From: a virus
Taxonomy: Duplodnaviria > Heunggongvirae > Uroviricota > Caudoviricetes
Direction: 5' to 3' (one strand)
Virus record (IMG/VR): IMGVR_UViG_2660238269_000008
Length of the DNA: 43,719 nt
Shown: one piece after another, positions 12,145-24,173 of the stretch
Numbering within the stretch: the first letter of the stretch is position 1
Layout of the letters: each line of letters starts with the position of its first letter
Notes under the pieces: generated by a model
The model's input: the letters and a program-made list of their open reading frames with translations, nothing else
What the model was told of the DNA's origin: nothing
Databases searched by the model: none
Program-made: the position numbers and the translations under genes

Positions 12145-12435
12145 CCTGGTCTGAAGCATTCCACAACGGTAGGAATCGCACTGGCGGTGGCGCTGGTGGT
12201 GTATTCGATTTGCCGCTGGGGATAAAAACGGTTTGCGGGAAAAGGAGAGTTAAGTAGAATTGCTGCGGGTGCTTGAGGCTGTTTGCCTCGGGCATGCCGC
12301 CGTAAGGCAGACAGAGAAAAGCCCCAGTTAACATTACGCGTCTTGCAGGACGCTTAACATTAATCTGAGGCCCAATCTATGCTTCACAAACGTAGGTTAG
12401 CCTCTTACGTGCCGAAAGGCAAGGAGAAGCAGGCT

Positions 12436-12591
12436 ATGAAGCAGCAAAAGGCGATGTTAATCGCCCTGATCGTCATCTGTTTAACCGTCATAGTGACGGC
12501 ACTGGTAACGAGGAAAGACCTCTGCGAGGTACGAATCCGAACCGGCCAGACGGAGGTTGCTGTCTTCGTAGACTACGAATCTGAGAAGTAA
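12436..12591 (+). CDS. hok: Hok/Gef-family type I toxin (HokD/RelF-like)
   Basis: MKQQKAMLIALIVICLTVIVTALVTRKDLCEVRIRTGQTEVAVFVDYESEK is near-identical to HokD/RelF as recalled; long structured leader upstream and hairpins downstream. Confidence 0.9.
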   Translation: MKQQKAMLIALIVICLTVIVTALVTRKDLCEVRIRTGQTEVAVFVDYESEK

Positions 12592-16955: not shown

Positions 16956-18014
16956 ATGTTTAATACTGTAAAAATATCCAGTTGTGAGTTAATCAACGCC
17001 GACTGCCTGGAATTTATCCGGTCGTTACCCGAAAATTCTGTTGACCTGATAGTCACGGACCCGCCGTACTTTAAAGTGAAGCCTGAGGGCTGGGATAACC
17101 AGTGGACGGGTGATGAGGATTACCTGAAATGGCTGGACCAGTGTCTGGCGCAGTTCTGGCGGGTGCTGAAACCTGCCGGAAGTCTTTACCTGTTCTGTGG
17201 CCATCGCCTGGCATCTGATATCGAAATCATGATGCGTGAACGCTTCAGTGTGCTGAACCATATTATCTGGGCGAAGCCGTCCGGACGCTGGAACGGGTGC
17301 AACAAGGAAAGCCTGAGGGCGTATTTCCCCGCCACAGAGCGCATTCTGTTCGCGGAACATTATCAGGGGCCGTATCGTCCGAAAGATGCCGGGTATGAGG
17401 CGAAGGGCAGGGCACTGAAACAGCATGTGATGGCTCCGCTGATTGCTTACTTTCGTGATGCGCGTGCTGCCCTGGGGATAACGGCAAAACAGATAGTGGA
17501 TGCCACAGGAAAGAAAAACATGGTGTCGCACTGGTTCAGTGCCAGTCAGTGGCAGCTACCGAACGAAAGTGATTATCTGAAATTACAGGCGCTGTTTGCC
17601 CGGGTGGCAGAAGAGAAGCATCAGCGCGGTGAACTGGAAAAGCCCCACCACCAGCTGCTGGAGACGTATACTTCACTGAACCGGCAGTATGCGGAACTGC
17701 AGAGTGAATATAAGCATCTGCGGCGGTATTTTGGCGTGACGGCGCAGGTGCCATACACGGATGTGTGGACGCATAAACCGGTGCAGTACTATCCCGGGAA
17801 ACATCCGTGCGAAAAACCGGCAGAAATGCTGCAGCAGATAATCAGCGCGAGCAGTCGTCCGGGGGACCTGGTTGCAGATTTCTTCATGGGGTCGGGTTCG
17901 ACAGTCAAAGCCGCGATGGCGCTGGGGCGTCGTGCAACTGGCGTTGAGCTGGAGACTGAACGTTTTGAGCAGACGGTCAGGGAAGTACGGGATTTAGTCA
18001 GTCAGAATGGATGA
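16956..18014 (+). CDS. Orphan DNA methyltransferase (amino-MTase, beta class: DPPY motif IV precedes FxGxG motif I)
   Basis: VTDPPY near the N-terminus, DLVADFFMGSGST near the C-terminus, with a charged/coiled-coil-like segment between; no adjacent restriction endonuclease. Confidence 0.85.
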   Translation: MFNTVKISSCELINADCLEFIRSLPENSVDLIVTDPPYFKVKPEGWDNQWTGDEDYLKWLDQCLAQFWRVLKPAGSLYLFCGHRLASDIEIMMRERFSVLNHIIWAKPSGRWNGCNKESLRAYFPATERILFAEHYQGPYRPKDAGYEAKGRALKQHVMAPLIAYFRDARAALGITAKQIVDATGKKNMVSHWFSASQWQLPNESDYLKLQALFARVAEEKHQRGELEKPHHQLLETYTSLNRQYAELQSEYKHLRRYFGVTAQVPYTDVWTHKPVQYYPGKHPCEKPAEMLQQIISASSRPGDLVADFFMGSGSTVKAAMALGRRATGVELETERFEQTVREVRDLVSQNG

Positions 18015-18054
18015 TATTGCAGGATTAGTTACGTACCGTTATTATCCTGCGCCC

Positions 18055-18130
18055 GGCCCTTTAGCTCAGTGGTGAGAGCGAGCGACTCATAATCGCCAGG
18101 TCGCTGGTTCAAATCCAGCAAGGGCCACCA
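18055..18130 (+). tRNA. ileZ: tRNA with CAU anticodon (Ile2, lysidine type; ileZ-like)
   Basis: Hand-folded cloverleaf: acceptor GGCCCTT/AAGGGCC, loop CTCATAA, T-loop TTCAAAT, 3' CCA; closely resembles E. coli ileX as recalled. Confidence 0.85.
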
Positions 18131-18139
18131 TATCACATA

Positions 18140-18216
18140 CCGCCATTAGCTCATCGGGATAGAGCGCCAGCCTTCGAAGCTGGCTGCGCGGGGTTCGAGT
18201 CCTCGATGGCGGTCCA
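18140..18216 (+). tRNA. tRNA-Arg (anticodon read as UCG)
   Basis: Hand-folded cloverleaf: acceptor CCGCCAT/ATGGCGG, anticodon stem CCAGC/GCTGG, loop CTTCGAA, T-loop TTCGAGT, 3' CCA. Confidence 0.75.
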
Positions 18217-18494
18217 TTATCTGCATTATGCGTTGTTGGTTCTGATGAGTGAATCATTGTCTTTTGAGCAACAGGCTATCATATAAGATAGCCTCAGACT
18301 TCCTTGTTTATTCTCGCCGGATGCTTCGTAGATATTTGCAGGCATCTGTATGCAGGGGTATTATTGCGGCATATATCATCCGGAAAAATAAAAACTACAT
18401 GCTGATCCGGAGATGATAGTTACAAGTCCTCCCGGATCCCGCATATTTACTATATTTTATAGATAATTGTTCTTGTTAATATGGAGATGGATAA

Positions 18495-18923
18495 ATGTAT
18501 TGCCGTGCTGTACCTGTTCTTGTTTTGATATTAGCCAGTCTGACAACTGGCTGCACAAAAGATGTATCGACAAATAATCATGATGCTTCTCTGTATCACT
18601 CAGATAAATTAATAAAGTCGCAAAATTTGAGCTCATCGGAACGTACCCCTGATGCCAGTGAAGAAATCCGGCAGTATGCCATTCAGGTCAGGAAAGCCAT
18701 AGAAGAACAGTTAAAGGATGCGAGTAAGTATTCAGGAAAAGAGTGTTCACTGAGAATGTATATGGCCCCGAATGGTCTTCTGCTACAGGTTAAAAGAGAA
18801 AGCGGTGATCCCGATTTATGTCGTGAAGCGATGAATGCAGTAAAGAATGCTGATATACCATCACCACCGTCTTCAGGAGTATATAAAGCATTTAGAAATG
18901 GCGTGCTGGATTTTAAACTCTGA
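18495..18923 (+). CDS. Lipoprotein with a TolA C-terminal domain III-like fold
   Basis: Signal peptide with lipobox LTTG-C; residues 60-142 align with E. coli TolA C-terminus (YAGKTCTLRIKLAPDGMLLDIKPEGGDPALCQAA...PKPPSQAVYEVFKNAPLDFKP vs SGKECSLRMYMAPNGLLLQVKRESGDPDLCREA...PSPPSSGVYKAFRNGVLDFKL). Confidence 0.8.
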   Translation: MYCRAVPVLVLILASLTTGCTKDVSTNNHDASLYHSDKLIKSQNLSSSERTPDASEEIRQYAIQVRKAIEEQLKDASKYSGKECSLRMYMAPNGLLLQVKRESGDPDLCREAMNAVKNADIPSPPSSGVYKAFRNGVLDFKL

Positions 18924-18980
18924 CAGGGGGAGAAGATTTTCTCCTGTCCTGATGATTTTGGGGCGCTGGAAAGATATTGT

Positions 18981-19240
18981 TCTGTGAAGTGTTAAATCCC
19001 TCACAATTCAGTAAGTTGACAGTTGCCTGTCAGACTGAGCATTTGTTAAAAAAATTTCGCATGGTGAATCCCCCTGTGCGGAGGGGCGACTGGTGAACGG
19101 TATGATCTCTTTGATGATCGTAAGCGAGAATACGCGGGTTTGGTGTCACCGGGCTGAACTCACCGGGAGGCACCCGGCACCATGCTCATGGTGATACAGA
19201 AATGCGGCTTCAGCCCCTCTCCGGAGGGGCTTTCTTATGG
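18981..19240 (+). repeat. Isolated copy (U1) of the ~250-bp hairpin-rich repeat family, ending in an intrinsic terminator
   Basis: Carries the three conserved modules tgttaaat.cctcaca, catggtgaatccccctgtgcggaggggc and ctcaccgggaggcacccggcaccatg, then gcccctctccggaggggc plus T-rich tail. Confidence 0.8.
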
Positions 19241-19384
19241 ACAAAAAAAGCCCGCGCTGGGAGACGCGGGCGGCAAGGAATAAACAATAAAACGTGAAGT
19301 AATACTTCAACTGGCGAATAATACCCGACAGTAATCACTCTGCGCAATAGCGTGGCCTTTTTCGAATTGCGGGCTGTAGTCTCC

Positions 19385-19556
19385 CTTCTGCCGGGTGTCC
19401 AGGTTGCAGATTTCTTCATGGGGTAGGGTTCGGCAGTTAAAGCAGCGATGGCGCTGGGGCGTCGTGCAACTGGCGTTGAGCTGGATACCGGGCGTTTTGA
19501 ACAGACTGCGCAGGAAATCAGGGATGTATTTAGCGGGAGCGGTTTGCAGAAGTAAT
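19385..19556 (+). pseudogene. 3' remnant of a second, diverged DNA methyltransferase gene
   Basis: High by-eye identity to the 3' end of the intact MTase (17866..18014), ends at an equivalent stop, but has an in-frame TAG in place of the MTase TCG codon and no 5' part. Confidence 0.75.
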
Positions 19557-19618
19557 CTCCCAAAATGCCATTTTTGGAATATACTGGTATTAAGTCTTTT
19601 TGCTCAGGTTAATTCAAA

Positions 19619-20344
19619 ATGGATGTTGCCTGCTCTGTGGTCCTGATTCGCTATCCGATAGATATTTTTCTTGAAAAAGAAAAAGTTTCACTCGATGCCG
19701 GAAGTGTTATGCTTGTTGCCAGAAATATAAGAGGGCTTTTCTGTGCTTATGCCGACAGAGTGAAAATGGCAGATATAAGTAACAGCGTCGTCAATCAGTA
19801 TCTGGAAAGGGAGTGTGAACTGACGGAGTATACACCGACAAAAATGCCTCTTTATTTGATGTCTGATATTTACAATACGGAACTGGCGGAGGCTTTAATA
19901 ACCCAGCATAGTGAATCCAGTGATACTTTGAAGGATTTCTCTGTTATAACCGCATTTTCATGTATCTCCTTATTTGCAACAGACAGACGTCTGCCATTAT
20001 TTTTGTCCGGTGCTGTAAATAATATCAGCTGTAAAGTAAGGGCTATAATTCAGACCGACATATCGGCAGGCTGGATGCTTGGTGTGATTGCATTACAATT
20101 GCATATGAGCGAAAGCTTGTTGAAGCGAAAACTTAAGGATGAAGGTTATAGCTTTAGTCGGTTGTTGCTGGAGGAGCGAATGCGTGTTGCTGTTAATCTT
20201 GTATGTTTCCAGCGAGAGTGTGGACAAGCGATAGCGGAAAAATGTGGTTACTCAAGTAAGTCCTACTTCATTTCTGTATTTCACCAGTATTATGGTGCAC
20301 CACCTGAGAGCTATGCATATTTGCAGAAAGCAGACGTTATCTGA
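19619..20344 (+). CDS. AraC/XylS-family transcriptional regulator, AppY/EnvY/AdiY-like
   Basis: C-terminal dual HTH aligns with EnvY/AppY (..CGYSS.SYFISVF...YG..P..Y); 241 aa; AT-rich. Confidence 0.8.
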   Translation: MDVACSVVLIRYPIDIFLEKEKVSLDAGSVMLVARNIRGLFCAYADRVKMADISNSVVNQYLERECELTEYTPTKMPLYLMSDIYNTELAEALITQHSESSDTLKDFSVITAFSCISLFATDRRLPLFLSGAVNNISCKVRAIIQTDISAGWMLGVIALQLHMSESLLKRKLKDEGYSFSRLLLEERMRVAVNLVCFQRECGQAIAEKCGYSSKSYFISVFHQYYGAPPESYAYLQKADVI

Positions 20345-20433
20345 TGTTTTTTCATCAGGCATATATTGATTGACTGTATTAGATATAGTCTGAATGTGTT
20401 CAGCATAAAAAGTTATAATCATTTGGTGTTTGC

Positions 20434-20712
20434 GTGAATATTGATGAGAAAATCAGATGTAGCCAACTGTTACAGCGTATTGAAGCCGTCAATGTGGAAC
20501 GAACAAAGGTCTTCAGTCGTCTGACAGTTTTATTTTGTACCCCTGATCGACGTTCAGGTCAGGAGATGGTTCTTCTGGATGTAGATGCACTTCGGAACGT
20601 CTGTGAGGAGTTCACCGCGGCTAATTCGGAGTTACTGAGTCTTGTTCAGGAGTACAACAGAATTGCAGGTAGTAACGGTTTTGATGAAATCAAAATTATA
20701 TCCCGTGGATAA
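20434..20712 (+). CDS. Small hypothetical protein (92 aa) downstream of the AraC-like regulator
   Basis: ORF with GTG start; same strand as the regulator. Confidence 0.4.
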   Translation: MNIDEKIRCSQLLQRIEAVNVERTKVFSRLTVLFCTPDRRSGQEMVLLDVDALRNVCEEFTAANSELLSLVQEYNRIAGSNGFDEIKIISRG

Positions 20713-20954
20713 AACATATCCTGTATATTTATGTTGTTACATACAGGCGCTTTTAGTATCTGCCGCACGGCAGTTGTACTTCAGAATAAGATGCTTTTGT
20801 GACTGGTGGTGTTGTATCTGGGGTTAGCCAGTAGGCAGGTTCAGAGAGTCCGGTGGTAATTATGTGTATGCAGTGGTTGTTGCTGTACCGTGGGCAAGTT
20901 CTGGAACTGGCTTCGTCCATTGTAGATGATTGTTAGCTGGATATCAGTTACCTC

Positions 20955-21980
20955 ATGGAAATGTTAAATGACTCACAATTCGGTTGATGGGCTATTGTCT
21001 GATCGATGGAAGTCTTGTAAAAACGAGCCAGCATAGTGAATCCCCCTGTGCGGAGGGGCGTCTGACATGGTCTCCATAGCGATGGTCACAATACGCAGAT
21101 TCAGTAGTCAGGCTGAATCTACCGGGAGGCACCCGGCACTATGCTGCTTATGGTGTATACATAGCGATCGGCCCCTCTCCGGAGGGGCTTTTTTTGTGCG
21201 GGAAAAGGCTGTGTTGTTAAGTGTTAAATTCCTCACAGTTCAGATGGTTGATGCTTGCCTGTCTGAGGGGGAGTTGTTAAAAAAGTTCTGCATGGTGAAT
21301 CCCCCTGTGCGGAGGGGCGACTGGTGTGATTTGCATCTTTTCTGTTGTAGGCAATGCAAACGCGGGTTCAGGGACACCAGACTGGACTCACCGGGAGGCA
21401 CCCGGCACCATGTTCATGATGATACAGATACGCAGTGTCAGCCCCTCTCCTGAGGGGCTTTTTTATGCAGGAAAAACGCTGTGTTGTGAAATGTTAAATT
21501 CCTCACAGTTCAGATGGTTGATGCTTGCCTGTCTTACGGGGAGTTGTTAAAAAAGTTCTGCATGGTGAATCCCCCTGAGCGGAGGGGCATATCAGCGCAG
21601 GTGTTTCTACTCTATCCTTTCTGTGCGGGTTCAGGTGCTGATACTGAACTCACCGGGAGGCACCCGGCATCATGCATATGGTTAACAGACACGTAGCGAA
21701 GCCCCTCTCCGGAGGGGCTTTTTTATGCAGGGAAAAGGCTGTGTTGTGAAATGTTAAATTCCTCACAATTCATGAGGTTGATGATTGTCTGATTGATGAG
21801 GAGTTTGTTAAAAAAAACGGGCATGGTGAATCCCCCTGTGCGGAGGGGTGATATCGTATCATTTCCTGTGTGGCCGACTGATATCACGGACATTTGTTCA
21901 CCGGGAGGCACCCGGCACCATGCAGTATACAGAGATTAGGCATACATCCAGGCTCCTCATCGCAGGAGCCTTTTTACATG
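20955..21980 (+). repeat. Tandem array of four ~250-bp units (U2-U5) of the hairpin-rich repeat family; candidate structured ncRNA genes
   Basis: Units at about 20955-21196, 21205-21465, 21481-21726, 21741-21980; same conserved modules in each; variable segments keep self-complementarity; each unit ends in a terminator hairpin plus T-run. Confidence 0.8.
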
Positions 21981-22208
21981 TAAAAAAAAACCGCTCCTGG
22001 GAAGAGCGGTTGGCAAGGAAGCAAGGAATAAATAACAAAACGTGAAGTAATTTATTCAGCACCCTAATAATACCTTAGAGTAATCACCTTGCGCAACTGT
22101 AAGGGCGTATTTCTTTTTTGCGGGCTGTTTTTCTGTGTGACTTTTGTGTTTCCGGAGGTCAGCCCGTGCCTTCTCTGACTCAGAACATTATCCCGGCCGG
22201 GAGGATTC

Positions 22209-24173
22209 ATGGCATTTAAACACTACGATGTGGTCAGGGCGGCATCGCCGTCAGACCTTGCTGAACGACTGACACAAAAACTGAAGGAGGGCTGGCAGCC
22301 ATTTGGCAGTCCGGTGGCCATCACGCCTTATACCCTGATGCAGGCCATTGCGGCGGAAGGTGATGTCACCACACCAGTGGCGGTGACCGGTAATGAGGGT
22401 AAGGCGGTGGCTGTCAGTGCCACCAGCGACCCGGAGTATTACTTTGTTGTGGTTCTGGCAGGGCAGTCAAATGGCATGTCGTATGGTGAAGGTCTTCCGC
22501 TGCCGGAGACATATGACCGTCCGGACCCGCGTATTAAGCAGCTGGCGCGCCGCAGTACGGTGACACCGGGCGGTGTCGCCTGTAAATATAACGACATCAT
22601 TCCGGCGGACCATTGTCTGCATGATGTGCAGGACATGAGCCGTCTTAACCATCCGAAAGCGGACCTGTCAAAAGGGCAGTACGGAACCGTGGGGCAGGGG
22701 CTGCATATCGCCAAAAAACTGCTGCCGTTTATACCGGCGAATGCGGGTATTCTGCTGGTTCCGTGCTGTCGTGGTGGTTCAGCGTTCACCACCGGAGCTG
22801 ATGGCACATACAGTGACGCTGGCGGTGCCTCGGAGAATTCAGCGCGCTGGGGTGTGGACAAGCCGCTGTATAAGGACCTTATCGGTCGAACAAAAGCAGC
22901 ACTGAAGAAGAACCCGAAAAATGTGCTGTTTACCGTGGTGTGGATGCAGGGGGAATTTGATTTTGACGGCACGCCCGGAAATCACGCAGCACAGTTTGGT
23001 GCGCTGGTTGATAAATTCCGTGCAGACCTGGCGGATATGGCAGGCCAGTGCGTCAGTGGCTCTGCTGGCAGTGTTCCCTGGATATGCGGGGACACGACGT
23101 ATTTCTGGAAGCAGAAGAACGAATCCACGTACCAGACGGTGTACGGCAGCTATAAAAACAAAACGGAAAAGAATATCCATTTCGTACCGTTCATGACGGA
23201 TGAGAACGGGGTGAATGTGCCGACGAACAAACCGGAAGAAGACCCGGACATTCCGGGTATCGGGTATTACGGTTCGAAATGGCGTGACAGCTCAGCCACC
23301 TGGACGTCACAGGACAGGGCGAGCCATTTCAGCACCTGGGCACGCCGGGGGATTATTTCCGACCGTCTGGCAACGGCGATTCTGGTGCACGCCGGGAGAA
23401 CCGCTGAATTCATTACCGGAAAACAGCCTGATATGGTGAAGCCCACCGTACCTTCCGGTGAAGGTCCGGAGAGAGAGGCGGAAGCCCCGGTCAGTAACCG
23501 AACCCTGATGAGTCTGCTGGCATCCGGCGAAGACCTGGCATCACAGGGCTGGCGCTATTATCACAAACCGGCGGGCGGAGACAGTGTTAACAAAAACATT
23601 GCTGAAGCGGTGGTCAGTGATGCGGGGGCTACGGGAGGTAAGGCTCTGCAACTGAACAAACCGGAAAACCACATCTGGTTTCTGGAGCATGATGCAGCCG
23701 GACAGGGTGCGGAGTTACTGAAGAAGGGCGGACGTGTGAGCGTACGGTTTAAGTTGCCGGGTTCACTGGTGCCGAATCAGTTTGCCCTGGGCATTTACTG
23801 GCAGTTGTCGTCCCTGCCGGAGGGGGTGACGCTGTCAGGAGAAGGTAACGATATGCTGATGTCCTTCTTCCTGCAGACGGATACGACGAACCTGAACGCG
23901 ATGCATCACAGGAAGCCGAATGCGAAGCTGGATACATTCGGGGTCTTTGATAACGGATGGCACACGCTGGCTTTTGAGTTTGCCGGAAACAACAGCATTC
24001 AGGTGACACCTGTACTGGATGAGAAACGGGGAGCGGCGTTCACACTGGTGAAGTCACCGGCATCGGGGGCGGCGGACAAACTGCAACTGACCGATATATC
24101 AAAATCGGCGACGTATACGCTGCTGATTGACAGCATTGCGGTGGAAGTGAACAGCACAGACACTGCGGCATGA
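22209..24173 (+). CDS. nanS-p: Prophage 9-O-acetyl-sialate esterase NanS-p (SGNH/SASA esterase)
   Basis: 654 aa; GQSNGMSYG esterase motif; size and position (immediately upstream of the lysis cassette) match the NanS-p genes that follow stx in Stx phages. Confidence 0.75.
   Translation: MAFKHYDVVRAASPSDLAERLTQKLKEGWQPFGSPVAITPYTLMQAIAAEGDVTTPVAVTGNEGKAVAVSATSDPEYYFVVVLAGQSNGMSYGEGLPLPETYDRPDPRIKQLARRSTVTPGGVACKYNDIIPADHCLHDVQDMSRLNHPKADLSKGQYGTVGQGLHIAKKLLPFIPANAGILLVPCCRGGSAFTTGADGTYSDAGGASENSARWGVDKPLYKDLIGRTKAALKKNPKNVLFTVVWMQGEFDFDGTPGNHAAQFGALVDKFRADLADMAGQCVSGSAGSVPWICGDTTYFWKQKNESTYQTVYGSYKNKTEKNIHFVPFMTDENGVNVPTNKPEEDPDIPGIGYYGSKWRDSSATWTSQDRASHFSTWARRGIISDRLATAILVHAGRTAEFITGKQPDMVKPTVPSGEGPEREAEAPVSNRTLMSLLASGEDLASQGWRYYHKPAGGDSVNKNIAEAVVSDAGATGGKALQLNKPENHIWFLEHDAAGQGAELLKKGGRVSVRFKLPGSLVPNQFALGIYWQLSSLPEGVTLSGEGNDMLMSFFLQTDTTNLNAMHHRKPNAKLDTFGVFDNGWHTLAFEFAGNNSIQVTPVLDEKRGAAFTLVKSPASGAADKLQLTDISKSATYTLLIDSIAVEVNSTDTAA

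Follow-up and report, generated by a model that had tools for sequence, protein, structure and literature searches.

Five repeats of about 250 bp in the late region of a lambdoid prophage are genuine structured sRNA genes, paralogues within the prophage family STnc100. They lie on the + strand of a 43,719-nucleotide stretch of viral DNA, referred to here as the window. Their family membership, fold and covariation, terminators and copy structure are matters of direct observation. Judging from homologues, Hfq-associated base pairing in trans is the most likely mechanism; the fuller account, in which trans-acting STnc100 paralogues also owe their layout to module joining and amplification, we consider probable but well short of certain.

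Five STnc100 genes and their neighborhood

An initial annotation had described five copies with a shared order of modules. A direct-repeat search finds the repeat families in register and hairpin B with its flank five times, at spacings of 1959, 269, 262 and 248 bp, and together with a five-way alignment it confirms both the number and the order; the start, first placed at 18981, is corrected to 18989. Mean column identity in the alignment is 75%; the 5' box, hairpins A and B and the terminator show little or no variation. The closing helix P2 with hairpin A is 93-100% identical between units, and the block of S2b, hairpin B and P2 78-97%. The segments originally called variable are indeed so, at 45-70% identity for the internal segment and 54-77% for the 3' linker. 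The late-region features are as follows.

18989-19238, + strand: Unit 1 (U1), STnc100 copy, Rfam 172.4 bits over 19030-19242; 5' box 18989-19004, P2 5' strand 19059-19066, hairpin A end 19087, hairpin B 19163-19177, P2 3' strand 19178-19185, terminator and T-run 19212-19238
19243-19351, - strand: candidate convergent sRNA facing Unit 1, EcOnc08/21/42 type, terminator 19271 to 19243
19395-19555, + strand: DNA-methyltransferase 3' fragment, paralogous to the end of 16956-18014, module junction
19619-20712, + strand: moron cargo between Unit 1 and Units 2-5, two open reading frames (ORFs)
19619-20344, + strand: AraC-family HTH regulator (Pfam HTH_18, HTH_AraC)
20434-20712, + strand: 92-aa ORF, from the ORF list
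20961-21196, + strand: Unit 2 (U2), STnc100 copy, Rfam 119.5 bits over 21002-21197
21221-21465, + strand: Unit 3 (U3), STnc100 copy and reference for the anatomy, Rfam 140.8 bits
21491-21725, + strand: Unit 4 (U4), STnc100 copy of EcOnc05/06 type, Rfam 141.7 bits
21751-21976, + strand: Unit 5 (U5), STnc100 copy, 3' half of EcOnc27/sRNA103 type, Rfam 141.3 bits
21983-22096, - strand: second copy of the candidate convergent sRNA, facing Unit 5, terminator 22011 to 21983
22209-24173, + strand: NanS-p-like esterase, downstream late gene (Pfam DUF1737, SASA, DUF6645)

The Rfam search that had been proposed for these repeats places all five above the curated gathering score of RF02076 (STnc100), 47 bits. 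Every match covers model positions 1-206 without truncation, so the units are full-length members and not fragments. These matches, the covariation described below and the transcribed, Hfq-bound homologues support the original reading of the repeats as a family of structured noncoding RNA genes, selected for their RNA structure. The novelty implied at that stage is not borne out: the units are no new family, as STnc100 is already catalogued in Rfam and has several published names, in O157 EcOnc27/sRNA103 and EcOnc04/05/06. Sakai EcOnc27, which scores 207.7 bits with the same model, faces AsxR, in agreement with publication, and the 5' half of Unit 1 is nearly identical to it. Two Northern probes from the published O157 list (PMC4104026 Table S2) have targets here, that of EcOnc27 on Unit 5 (21920-21944, 0 mismatches) and that of EcOnc06, CGGATTCAGGTGCTGATAC, on Unit 4 (21626-21644, 1 mismatch).

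One STnc100 copy and a tandem run of four make up the locus. The same 3.9 kb is present in 78 complete E. coli genomes, and other phage contigs also carry arrays of two to four units. The RefSeq locus identical to this one has the gene order Q, methylase, tRNAs, units, esterase, holin and lysozyme. The units thus lie between Q/PR' and the lysis genes and are faced by a convergent opposite-strand sRNA, which is the dyad of Tree et al. (2014) and the same moron site and arrangement as for EcOnc27. In EDL933, the 11 STnc100 copies sit at dispersed positions (PMC5331693), whereas here five share one prophage and four are in tandem.

As with AsxR/AgvB and EcOnc08/21/42, minus-strand terminators and conserved sequence lie directly 3' of Units 1 and 5. 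The published EcOnc08/21/42 Northern probe corresponds to 19317-19351 on the + strand with 1 mismatch, which places the RNA on the minus strand. The sequence 3' of Unit 1 recurs 3' of Unit 5, where the second candidate is 74-94% identical to 19243-19347. Models of AsxR/AgvB (RF02703, RF02702) give no hit at E <= 1 in 18900-22100, with AsxR at 88.1 bits in Sakai as the positive control. Given this and the probe match, the partner is of the longer EcOnc08 type (~271 nt, the size of the Sakai Sp4 homologue of the candidate facing Unit 1) and not a 51-60-nt anti-sRNA.

The methyltransferase fragment, annotated in RefSeq as an incomplete pseudogene, contains an ORF (19448-19555) that resembles the C-terminus of the 352-aa methylase. 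The 1+4 layout probably arose when two late-region modules were joined head to tail, each running from a methylase 3' end through cargo, STnc100 and convergent sRNA up to the nanS-p leader, with tandem amplification afterwards.

Fold, covariation and transcription signals

The unit core is closed by P2, a long-range helix of 8 bp (GCAUGGUG/CACCAUGC) that the initial annotation, correct about the order of modules, had overlooked. Unit 2 alone carries a compensatory variant, GCAUAGUG/CACUAUGC, which has no ATG at the start of P2. The terminator stem changes in the same manner, from GCCCCUC/GAGGGGC in Units 1-4 to GGCUCCUC/GAGGAGCC in Unit 5, as had been claimed. Covarying stems, also part of that first description, are therefore present within the window itself, and the covariation test it called for extends them to 119 distinct homologues. 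In the nested structure, 94.5% of cells pair, compared with 74.6% when shuffled; sliding the partner gives 39-51%. Both sides vary in 29 of 34 pairs, and none of 500 shuffles reached the observed values. P2, extracted with fixed anchors, occurs in 56 strand combinations with many compensatory changes. G-U pairs are frequent (at one pair, GU in 53 sequences), which ties the constraint specifically to RNA of the + strand. The consensus helices of STnc100 (closing helix, hairpin A, S2, hairpin B and terminator) are all present and covary, and the invariance of hairpin B among the homologues is partly an effect of ascertainment, since they were collected by that pattern.

Minimum free energy (MFE) folds of Units 2-5 recover this architecture with z from -2.1 to -3.6. 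The Unit 3 fold, a multiloop closed by P2 (z = -2.1), serves as the reference, with these landmarks on the + strand. Unit 5 is the exception in having no S2 hairpin.

21222-21230: upstream extended -10, TGtTAAATT
21255-21260: internal -35-like TTGCCT
21275-21283: internal extended -10, TGtTAAAAA
21290-21297 and 21406-21413: P2 5' and 3' strands
21302-21317: hairpin A
21321-21327 and 21374-21380: S1a (CUGGUGU) and S1b (ACACCAG)
21364-21371 and 21382-21389: S2a and S2b
21391-21405: hairpin B
21414-21439: 3' linker
21440-21465: terminator

The variable segments had been said to keep self-complementary ends. The complementarity is real: one arm, S1a, lies directly 3' of hairpin A, and the other is in the loop of the next hairpin, S2 (in Unit 4, AUCAGC/GCUGAU). 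Over 66 unique pairs, native S1 duplexes average -9.8 kcal/mol, compared with -6.55 for permuted partners (p = 1e-17). A fixed-column test on the model-fitted alignment gives a modest signal, 56% paired compared with 46% when shuffled, as subtypes differ in register by 1-2 nt. The duplex test does not depend on register and gives the stronger evidence. This pairing, missing from the Rfam STnc100 consensus structure line, implies a pseudoknot or an alternative fold, as far as sequence comparison can tell.

A G+C-rich hairpin with a T-run ends every unit. A terminator scan found 14 terminator-like sites, with 2.8 +/- 1.7 expected in shuffles, and one falls in each unit, which confirms that each has its own terminator. 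The promoter first assigned to every unit, TGtTAAATT, is plausible: it is the -10 of a canonical promoter in other family members, and a start there predicts RNAs of 210-235 nt, near the published bands of ~222 and ~235/247 nt. That assignment missed a second promoter-like element in each unit, the extended -10 TGtTAAAAA, 6 nt before GCATGG. A consensus promoter scan of 18900-22250 gave no + strand sigma-70 site, so the promoter calls draw on homology to the PasD start and to family promoters and on published RNA sizes.

A kil-leader relative of the core

A model of our own built from the window units, R1, identifies a sixth, divergent relative in the window.

5213-5367, - strand: relative of kil-leader type, R1 35 bits, E = 4e-6

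Rfam STnc100 scores it at 33 bits, under the gathering score. It has P2, the S1/S2 pairing, an alternative hairpin A (UGCG-GCUAAG-CGCA) and a hairpin B of CCUGG-AGGCA-CCAGG. It has no terminator of its own; its setting is the early-left operon, where it precedes a Kil-like ORF of 62 aa by 26 nt. Elements of this type occur, without annotation, in 4642 of 5426 complete E. coli genomes (~85%), K-12 included. In K-12 Rac the element sits between KilS (b4833) and kilR, after the KilS terminator; KilS is a distinct, terminated RNA upstream of it. This kilR 5' UTR shares the core fold of the sixth element and, more distantly, of Units 1-5, but differs from the units in its hairpin A, in having neither promoter nor terminator of its own, and in being part of an mRNA leader. 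The same core fold is also present in the P7 ban operon. In all three settings of the fold (stand-alone sRNAs, kil leaders, P7 ban operon), the GGUGAAU junction and the AGGCA loop of hairpin B persist, and the changes in the hairpin B stem are compensatory.

Two candidate identities for these early elements were rejected. A boxA-like stretch upstream of them, UGCUCUUU, is the 3' arm of a covarying hairpin and not a nut-type boxA; one locus (L013) has UUGCCUU there. The put antiterminator RNA of HK022 resembles the sixth element only in position, as a structured RNA in a lambdoid early operon, and differs in being ~70 nt long with two stems. HK022 has no hairpin B match at <=3 mismatches and gives only E >= 0.026 with R1, and put is rejected on this lack of similarity.

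Strong conservation of the core and its occurrence in kil leaders without promoter or terminator suggest a function of its own that a scaffold with a seed does not explain. On a tentative reading of these sequences, the ~120-nt core might be an autonomous, ancient phage RNA domain that does more than carry an sRNA seed. Such a domain might consist of P2, the GGUGAAU junction, a hairpin with a 6-nt loop, the S1/S2-loop pairing and hairpin B (CCNGG-AGGCA-CCNGG). It might be deployed in stand-alone sRNA genes (STnc100, PasD), in tandem arrays and as a leader upstream of kil-type toxic genes.

Homologues and the mode of action

EcOnc27/sRNA103 and EcOnc05/06 are Hfq-bound, Northern-verified sRNAs of O157 prophages (PMC4104026 Table S2; PMC5331693). 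EcOnc27 gives bands of ~235/247 nt, the latter destabilized without hfq (PMC4104026), and after coordinate calibration its Hfq CRAC peak in the published data (PMC4104026) falls on the linker and terminator. All 11 EDL933 copies of STnc100 are transcribed and one, STnc100_4, is Northern-positive (PMC5331693). Overexpression of sRNA103 raises espA and fimZ, the espA effect being reported as probably indirect, and no STnc100 member is known to have a validated direct target. The family ranks among the most abundant sRNA families of enterobacterial genomes, and a machine-learning study found SNPs in one copy, located downstream of stx2, to be predictive of haemolytic uraemic syndrome.

PasD1 and PasD2 of EPEC E2348/69, homologous to EcOnc13 and already known from publication to be related to STnc100, share with the units the 5' start motif GCAUGGUGAAUCC, the terminator, Hfq association and a position upstream of an esterase or holin gene. 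R1 matches both loci (35-37 bits), with ends that agree with the published ones. Rfam STnc100, however, stays under its gathering score on the PasD loci, and PasD hairpins A and B are degenerate; by sequence, PasD is a more distant relative of the five units. These abundant RIL-seq sRNAs have their seed immediately 5' of the terminator and form many Hfq-dependent chimeras with distant mRNAs. The seed motif UGUGAG is absent from the 3' linkers of Units 1-5. In an hfq comparison table, PasD abundance is nearly unchanged (log2 fold change 0.55 and -0.18), so the dependence on Hfq may be weak.

On this basis, each unit would start at one or two TG-extended -10 promoters and yield a discrete RNA of ~160-235 nt. 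Its P2-closed core of ~120 nt comprises hairpin A, a variable hairpin, S2 and hairpin B, which is near-invariant; S1a, a stretch of 7 nt 3' of hairpin A, pairs with the S2 loop as a pseudoknot or in an alternative fold. A mostly single-stranded linker of ~25 nt and an intrinsic terminator complete the RNA, and Hfq, judging from homologues, would be bound through the linker and the terminator U-tail. The likeliest seed for pairing in trans would be the unit-specific 3' linker, as mapped for PasD, and the five copies may thus offer five specificities on one scaffold. In the lysogen, the unit terminators could in addition keep transcription from upstream out of nanS-p and the lysis genes, with Q-modified polymerase reading through.

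Paralogous sRNA genes with a conserved scaffold and diverging parts, some in tandem, are known from OmrA/B, PrrF1/2 and Qrr1-5, a parallel drawn in published work on the Pas sRNAs, and LhrC1-5 is also a multi-copy sRNA family. The units differ from OmrA/B, PrrF1/2 and Qrr1-5 in sequence and fold, which are unrelated, and in being prophage-borne and much larger, with a multi-helix core. Comparison with IpeX (K-12 DLP12, nmpC 3' UTR), located between Q and the lysis genes, gave no significant blastn match of any unit in Q-nmpC-essD (best 12 nt, E = 0.5), and an Rfam search of the same region gave no hit. A CRISPR or type III toxI array, whose short repeats of ~28-36 nt lack individual terminators and have cas or toxN neighbors, was rejected as well: the units here recur every 248-269 bp, all have terminators of their own, and they neighbor genes for a methylase, an AraC-type regulator and an esterase.

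Two alternatives keep the RNA structure and give it other work. The units could be mainly cis-acting leaders, attenuators or insulators for late genes (nanS-p, holin), with the short RNAs as by-products. A gene in the same orientation directly follows Unit 5 (nanS-p), PasD2 (esterase), PasD1 (holin) and EcOnc27 (ECs_1207); the terminator-less kil-leader relatives so close to a start codon, and in K-12 the position after the KilS terminator, fit such a role; and hairpin A and the terminators of Units 1-4 have arms in common. We nevertheless consider it unlikely. Units 2-4 precede another unit and no gene, Unit 1 precedes a convergent sRNA and a pseudogene, and the published RNAs are discrete and abundant, with the many distant PasD chimeras also pointing away from action in cis. 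The shared arms do pair in the MFE fold of Unit 1; across the family, however, hairpin A is constant and the terminators vary freely, which leaves no conserved antiterminator pairing, and we rejected a riboswitch-like competition. About equally doubtful, on comparative evidence, is that the core binds a protein, the ribosome or RNA polymerase as an autonomous domain, with the array as decoy or sponge and linker pairing secondary. The recurrence of the fold in three settings, the prevalence of the kil-leader type in E. coli and GGAGG-like strings in hairpin A, hairpin B and the terminator would suit such a domain, as would ribosome footprints on some EDL933 copies (coverage values up to 3.2; PMC5331693). 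No partner of the core is known, however, similarity to HK022 put RNA is lacking at the mismatch limit given above, and part of the hairpin B invariance comes from how homologues were gathered.

The remaining alternatives leave RNA structure aside, and both are highly improbable. Translation of the units into small proteins (MVNPPVRRG...), starting at the GCATGG ATG, would agree with the ATG at the start of P2 in four of five units and with the same EDL933 footprints, but is largely refuted. Unit 2 has ATA for ATG, and Unit 1 stops after 11 codons; the ORFs, noted earlier as not conserved in frame across copies, measure 11, none, 53, 44 and 38 aa in Units 1-5 and 5-71 aa family-wide. Of 115 relatives, only 32 have ATG as their first codon; a Shine-Dalgarno sequence at a suitable distance is lacking, and substitutions compensate pairing, not codons. 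Recombination modules acting as DNA at moron boundaries, with no RNA function, would account for units that flank cargo genes and for conserved flanks around unalignable cores, as allele recombination predicts. This is contradicted by G-U pairs and compensatory changes specific to one strand, by transcribed, Hfq-bound homologues and by the terminator in each unit; such a role may exist as an additional, evolutionary one.

For annotation, each of the five repeats can be entered as an STnc100 gene, with EcOnc27 and EcOnc05/06 as the types. New here are the closing helix P2, the S1 pairing partner, two promoter-like elements per unit and the kil-leader relative. The covarying S1/S2-loop pairing implies a pseudoknot or switch that current consensus structures omit. 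Most differences between tandem copies fall in the internal segment and the 3' linker, and such arrays offer a natural experiment in specificity. The kil-leader relative in K-12 opens the shared core to tests in a model strain. If the core is autonomous, STnc100 sRNAs and the kil leader would have a partner or ligand in common.

STnc100 units in the late region

The initial annotation proposed five copies of one unit, read as a candidate family of structured ncRNA genes. A reading of positions 18700-22300 and a direct-repeat search recovered all five on the + strand, with the hairpin B blocks 1959, 269, 262 and 248 bp apart; U1 stands alone and U2-U5 lie in tandem. When the window was scanned against Rfam 15, each unit was assigned to STnc100 (RF02076), with scores of 172.4, 141.7, 141.3, 140.8 and 119.5 bits (gathering score, 47 bits) and matches spanning model positions 1-206 in every case. 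The units are almost certainly members of STnc100. The proposed reading is therefore supported, and the repeat family is already known: it is catalogued in Rfam and carries several names in the literature.

Landmarks extracted from each unit, + strand (S1a, stretch after hairpin A; S1b, its partner in the S2 hairpin loop)
U1: 18989-19238; CUCACA stretch of the 5' box, 18997-19004; S1a/S1b, CUGGUGA/UCACCGG; 3' linker, UCAUGGUGAUACAGAAAUGCGGCUUC
U2: 20961-21196; CUCACA stretch, 20969-20976; S1a/S1b, UCUGAC/GUCAGG; 3' linker, UGCUUAUGGUGUAUACAUAGCGAUC
U3: 21221-21465; CUCACA stretch, 21229-21236; S1a/S1b, CUGGUGU/ACACCAG; 3' linker, UCAUGAUGAUACAGAUACGCAGUGUC
U4: 21491-21725; CUCACA stretch, 21499-21506; S1a/S1b, AUCAGC/GCUGAU; 3' linker, AUAUGGUUAACAGACACGUAGCGA
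U5: 21751-21976; CUCACA stretch, 21759-21766; S1a/S1b, GAUAUC/GAUAUC; 3' linker, AGUAUACAGAGAUUAGGCAUACAUCC

The O157 Sakai copy downstream of stx2B is EcOnc27, named sRNA103 in EDL933 and 86-24. Its locus scores 207.7 bits with the same STnc100 model and has AsxR opposite, on the other strand. According to Tree et al., eight or more Sakai prophages have "dyads" of convergent Hfq-binding sRNAs at their moron site, which lies between PR' and the lysis genes (PMC4104026). For EcOnc27 they list an Hfq CRAC peak together with bands of ~235/247 nt on Northern blots, the 247-nt one being destabilised without hfq (PMC4104026 Table S2). With coordinates calibrated by AsxR, the 3' linker and terminator both fall under this peak, as does the 3' side of hairpin B. 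The EcOnc27 probe target is identical to U5 21920-21944, and the EcOnc06 target corresponds to U4 21626-21644 with one mismatch. All 11 STnc100 copies of EDL933 are transcribed, one of them Northern-confirmed (PMC5331693). STnc100 and PasD1/2 of EPEC are presented as relatives in a 2026 Storz laboratory preprint; a model that we built from the window units found both PasD loci at 35-37 bits and reproduced their published ends.

Aligned, the five units have a mean column identity of 75%, with long invariant runs in the 5' box, hairpin A, hairpin B and the terminator. Between-unit identity is 93-100% in P2 (a long-range closing helix) plus hairpin A, 78-97% in the block of S2b, hairpin B and P2, 70-96% in the terminator, 63-96% in the 5' leader, 54-77% in the 3' linker and 45-70% in the internal variable segment. 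Every unit ends in its own terminator, a G+C-rich hairpin followed by a T-run (5/5), and the region holds 14 terminator-like sites, compared with 2.8 ± 1.7 in shuffles. The ORF from the ATG in GCATGG is 11, 53, 44 and 38 aa long in U1, U3, U4 and U5, has no start codon in U2, and spans 5-71 aa across relatives. These erratic lengths and starts bear out the earlier argument that the ORF is not frame-conserved across copies, and coding selection is therefore excluded. Separately, the CUCACA in the invariant 5' box of every unit is the reported target motif of the PasD seed UGUGAG in EPEC RIL-seq, which may be coincidence or cross-talk between these two related sRNAs.

Fold and covariation of the unit

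The Rfam consensus and the MFE folds of U2-U5 agree on the architecture (z from -2.1 to -3.6). P2, an 8-bp helix (GCAUGGUG/CACCAUGC), closes a multiloop with four hairpins, namely A, a variable one, S2 (GGGUUCAG/CUGAACUC) and B, and downstream of it come the 3' linker and then the terminator. The initial annotation had recognized the hairpins and terminator but overlooked P2. To assess this helix without an alignment, we located both strands in 99 relatives by a set distance from invariant anchors. Among the 56 combinations of the two strands, compensatory changes abound, for example GUGUGGUG/CACCACAC, AUGCGGUG/CACCGCAG and CUGCUGUG/CACAGCAG.

Across a model-fitted alignment of 119 distinct sequences, 94.5% of cells pair, versus 74.6% when shuffled and 39-51% with slid partners, and both sides vary in 29 of the 34 pairs; none of 500 shuffles reaches these values. 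Given how often G-U pairs occur, the constraint is specific to the + strand. A caution on these figures is that the alignment was itself fitted to the model. In addition, because homologues were gathered with an exact hairpin B pattern, the invariance of that hairpin is partly ascertainment. The arms of hairpin A (CCCCU...AGGGG) are almost identical to those of the U1-U4 terminator (GCCCCUC...GAGGGGC), allowing a swap of partners (in U1, 19071-19087 and 19212-19231; likewise in U2-U4). The MFE fold of U1 pairs hairpin A with the terminator arms in place of P2; these shared arms are not conserved across the family.

The self-complementary ends noted in the variable segments proved real: S1a, 7 nt directly after hairpin A, pairs with S1b in the S2 loop. 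Among 66 unique relatives, the mean duplex energy is -9.8 kcal/mol for native partners versus -6.55 kcal/mol for permuted ones (Mann-Whitney p = 1e-17). Shifts of register between subtypes weaken the signal when it is counted in fixed columns (56% vs 46% in shuffles, reached by 0/500). The Rfam STnc100 structure line lacks this pairing. S1b lies within the S2 loop with just 0-2 nt on each side, so S1 and S2 would either coexist as a compact pseudoknot or exclude each other as alternative folds.

Transcripts, proposed mechanism and locus layout

A consensus scan found no + strand sigma-70 site, so promoter assignments rest on homology. By RNA-seq, PasD2 starts at the G of GCAUGGUG, with TTGACT, a 17-18 nt spacer and TAAAAA upstream, and most family members have a clear TTGAC(A/G/T)-17-TAnAAT promoter at the equivalent internal place. 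The window units carry a promoter-like element there (TTG(C/T)CT, 17 nt, TGtTAAAAA) that ends 6 nt before GCATGG and predicts RNAs of 156-180 nt. The upstream TGtTAAATT proposed by the initial annotation, 72-73 nt upstream of GGTGAATCC, occurs in only 22/134 relatives; aATGTTAAATT is the canonical -10 in six other relatives. A start ~7 nt past it would give RNAs of 210-235 nt. The RNA sizes published from Northern blots fall in both length classes (~177 nt for EcOnc06 and ~187 nt for EcOnc13; ~222 nt for EcOnc04/05 and ~235/247 nt for EcOnc27; PMC4104026 Table S2), making both promoters plausible, and the upstream element is probably used in EcOnc27-type units.

Membership, fold, terminators and layout of the units are established here. 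For their mechanism, at slightly better than even probability, homologues suggest that each unit would yield a discrete RNA, bound by Hfq at the linker and terminator U-tail, that would act in trans by base pairing. The PasD seed UGUGAG, which can pair with the target motif CUCACA by complementarity, sits immediately ahead of the terminator; by position, the unit-specific 3' linkers would therefore be the likeliest seeds. The internal variable segment is an unlikely one; it is structural because S1 and S2 are formed from it. The four or five serial terminators would also insulate nanS-p, the esterase gene downstream of U5, and the lysis genes in the lysogen, as the established biology of morons and Q antitermination would have it. 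We know of no validated STnc100 target. Further points against this mechanism are that the espA effect of sRNA103 is considered indirect, that PasD levels are nearly unchanged in an hfq comparison, and that some EDL933 STnc100 copies carry ribosome footprints (PMC5331693).

Other features of the window
12267-12441, +: sok (RF01794), Rfam, 115.8 bits
18055-18130, +: tRNA, called Met (anticodon CAT) by ARAGORN
17872-19390 and 19395-22130: late-region modules, joined head to tail
19243-19351, -: convergent sRNA candidate with its own terminator, directly after U1
19619-20344, +: AraC-family HTH regulator, cargo between U1 and the tandem array
20434-20712, +: 92-aa ORF with no Pfam match, cargo between U1 and the tandem array
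21983-22096, -: second convergent sRNA candidate with its own terminator, directly after U5

Gene calls come from the RefSeq annotation of an identical locus and from Pfam. The order is Q, two small genes, a DNA methyltransferase, tRNA-Ile, tRNA-Arg, a TolA-C-like gene and U1, followed by a methyltransferase pseudogene fragment, an HTH gene, U2-U5, a SASA esterase, holin and lysozyme. The ~100 bp after U1 (19243-19347) are repeated after U5 (21983-22096) at 74-94% identity, and 19395-19555 is a copy of the methylase gene 3' end that marks a module junction; two late-region modules have thus been joined. Each runs from methylase 3' end through cargo, STnc100 and convergent sRNA to nanS-p leader, and in the second the STnc100 unit is amplified to four copies. 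U3 and U4 have flanks 96% identical and internal segments only 56% identical, which points to a swap of the internal cassette between conserved arms rather than uniform drift.

The 1+4 arrangement is not unique to the window: at ≥80% coverage, its 3.9 kb are found in 78/5426 complete E. coli genomes, O91:H21 and O113:H21 STEC among them, and one viral contig (L122) has the same unit spacing. Strains with this locus include E. coli 2013C-3181 and O91:H21 FWSEC0008. About a dozen of the ~120 collected phage contigs carry 2-4 units in tandem. In a related phage contig, L032, an Rfam isrI match (4294-4392, -; 58.5 bits) lies between two units of a tandem array. The AraC-type cargo is bracketed by STnc100 units, resembling moron boundaries.

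The published EcOnc08/21/42 Northern probe fits the candidate after U1 with 1 mismatch, and this candidate is also similar to an EPEC Hfq RIL-seq sRNA (E2348C_1409/1408 IGR). The candidate after U5 would be antisense to the nanS-p leader. The homologue of the 18055-18130 tRNA is annotated as tRNA-Ile in RefSeq and Sakai; it is ileZ-like and presumably lysidine-modified. The sok match implies a putative hok/sok-type type I toxin-antitoxin locus in the prophage.

A relative of the core in kil leaders

Our own model also found a sixth, divergent relative in the window.

Kil-leader-type relatives
Window 5213-5367, -: own model, 35 bits, E = 4e-6
K-12 Rac, L129 6228-6392, - (NC_000913.3 1418227-1418391)
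Locus L127, 2498-2641
Locus L128, 3610-3775

The Rfam STnc100 model gives the window element 33 bits, under its threshold. It keeps P2 and the GGUGAAU junction. Hairpin A differs from that of the STnc100 units (UGCG-GCUAAG-CGCA), hairpin B is compensatorily changed (CCUGG-AGGCA-CCAGG), and the S1/S2 pairing is CAGUUAA/UUAACUG inside GGCGUUAA...UUAACGUC. The element has no promoter or terminator of its own; an intrinsic terminator precedes it and a 62-aa Kil-like ORF begins 26 nt after its end, in an early-left operon between a cI-like repressor and a RecE-like exonuclease.

The same element precedes kil in Stx phage 75/02 and terB in the P7 ban operon, and in K-12 Rac it lies between the KilS sRNA terminator and the kilR start codon, where the paper naming KilS does not describe it. 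By blastn it is present in 4642/5426 complete E. coli genomes, at a median of two places per genome, with no RefSeq annotation under the matches; none of the 24 distinct versions in phage contigs reaches any Rfam gathering score. In an alignment of 16 versions, P2 pairs in 93.8% of cells and hairpin B shows a compensatory G-C to U-A change in three sequences. A likeness to the HK022 put RNA was tested, and no similarity was found. Many of these elements, at L097, L117, L013 and loci like them, have an additional long hairpin 5' of the core. The base of that hairpin (CACAACGG...CCGUUGUG) shares sequence with the 5' strand of P2, and GUUGUG could therefore find its partner either upstream or downstream, a potential structural switch.

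These observations suggest that the core may be a module with a role of its own. What the locus still offers is the S1/S2 pairing, a set of natural specificity variants in the tandem arrays, and a kil-leader relative that carries no annotation; with these three together, the function of the shared core can be tested in K-12.
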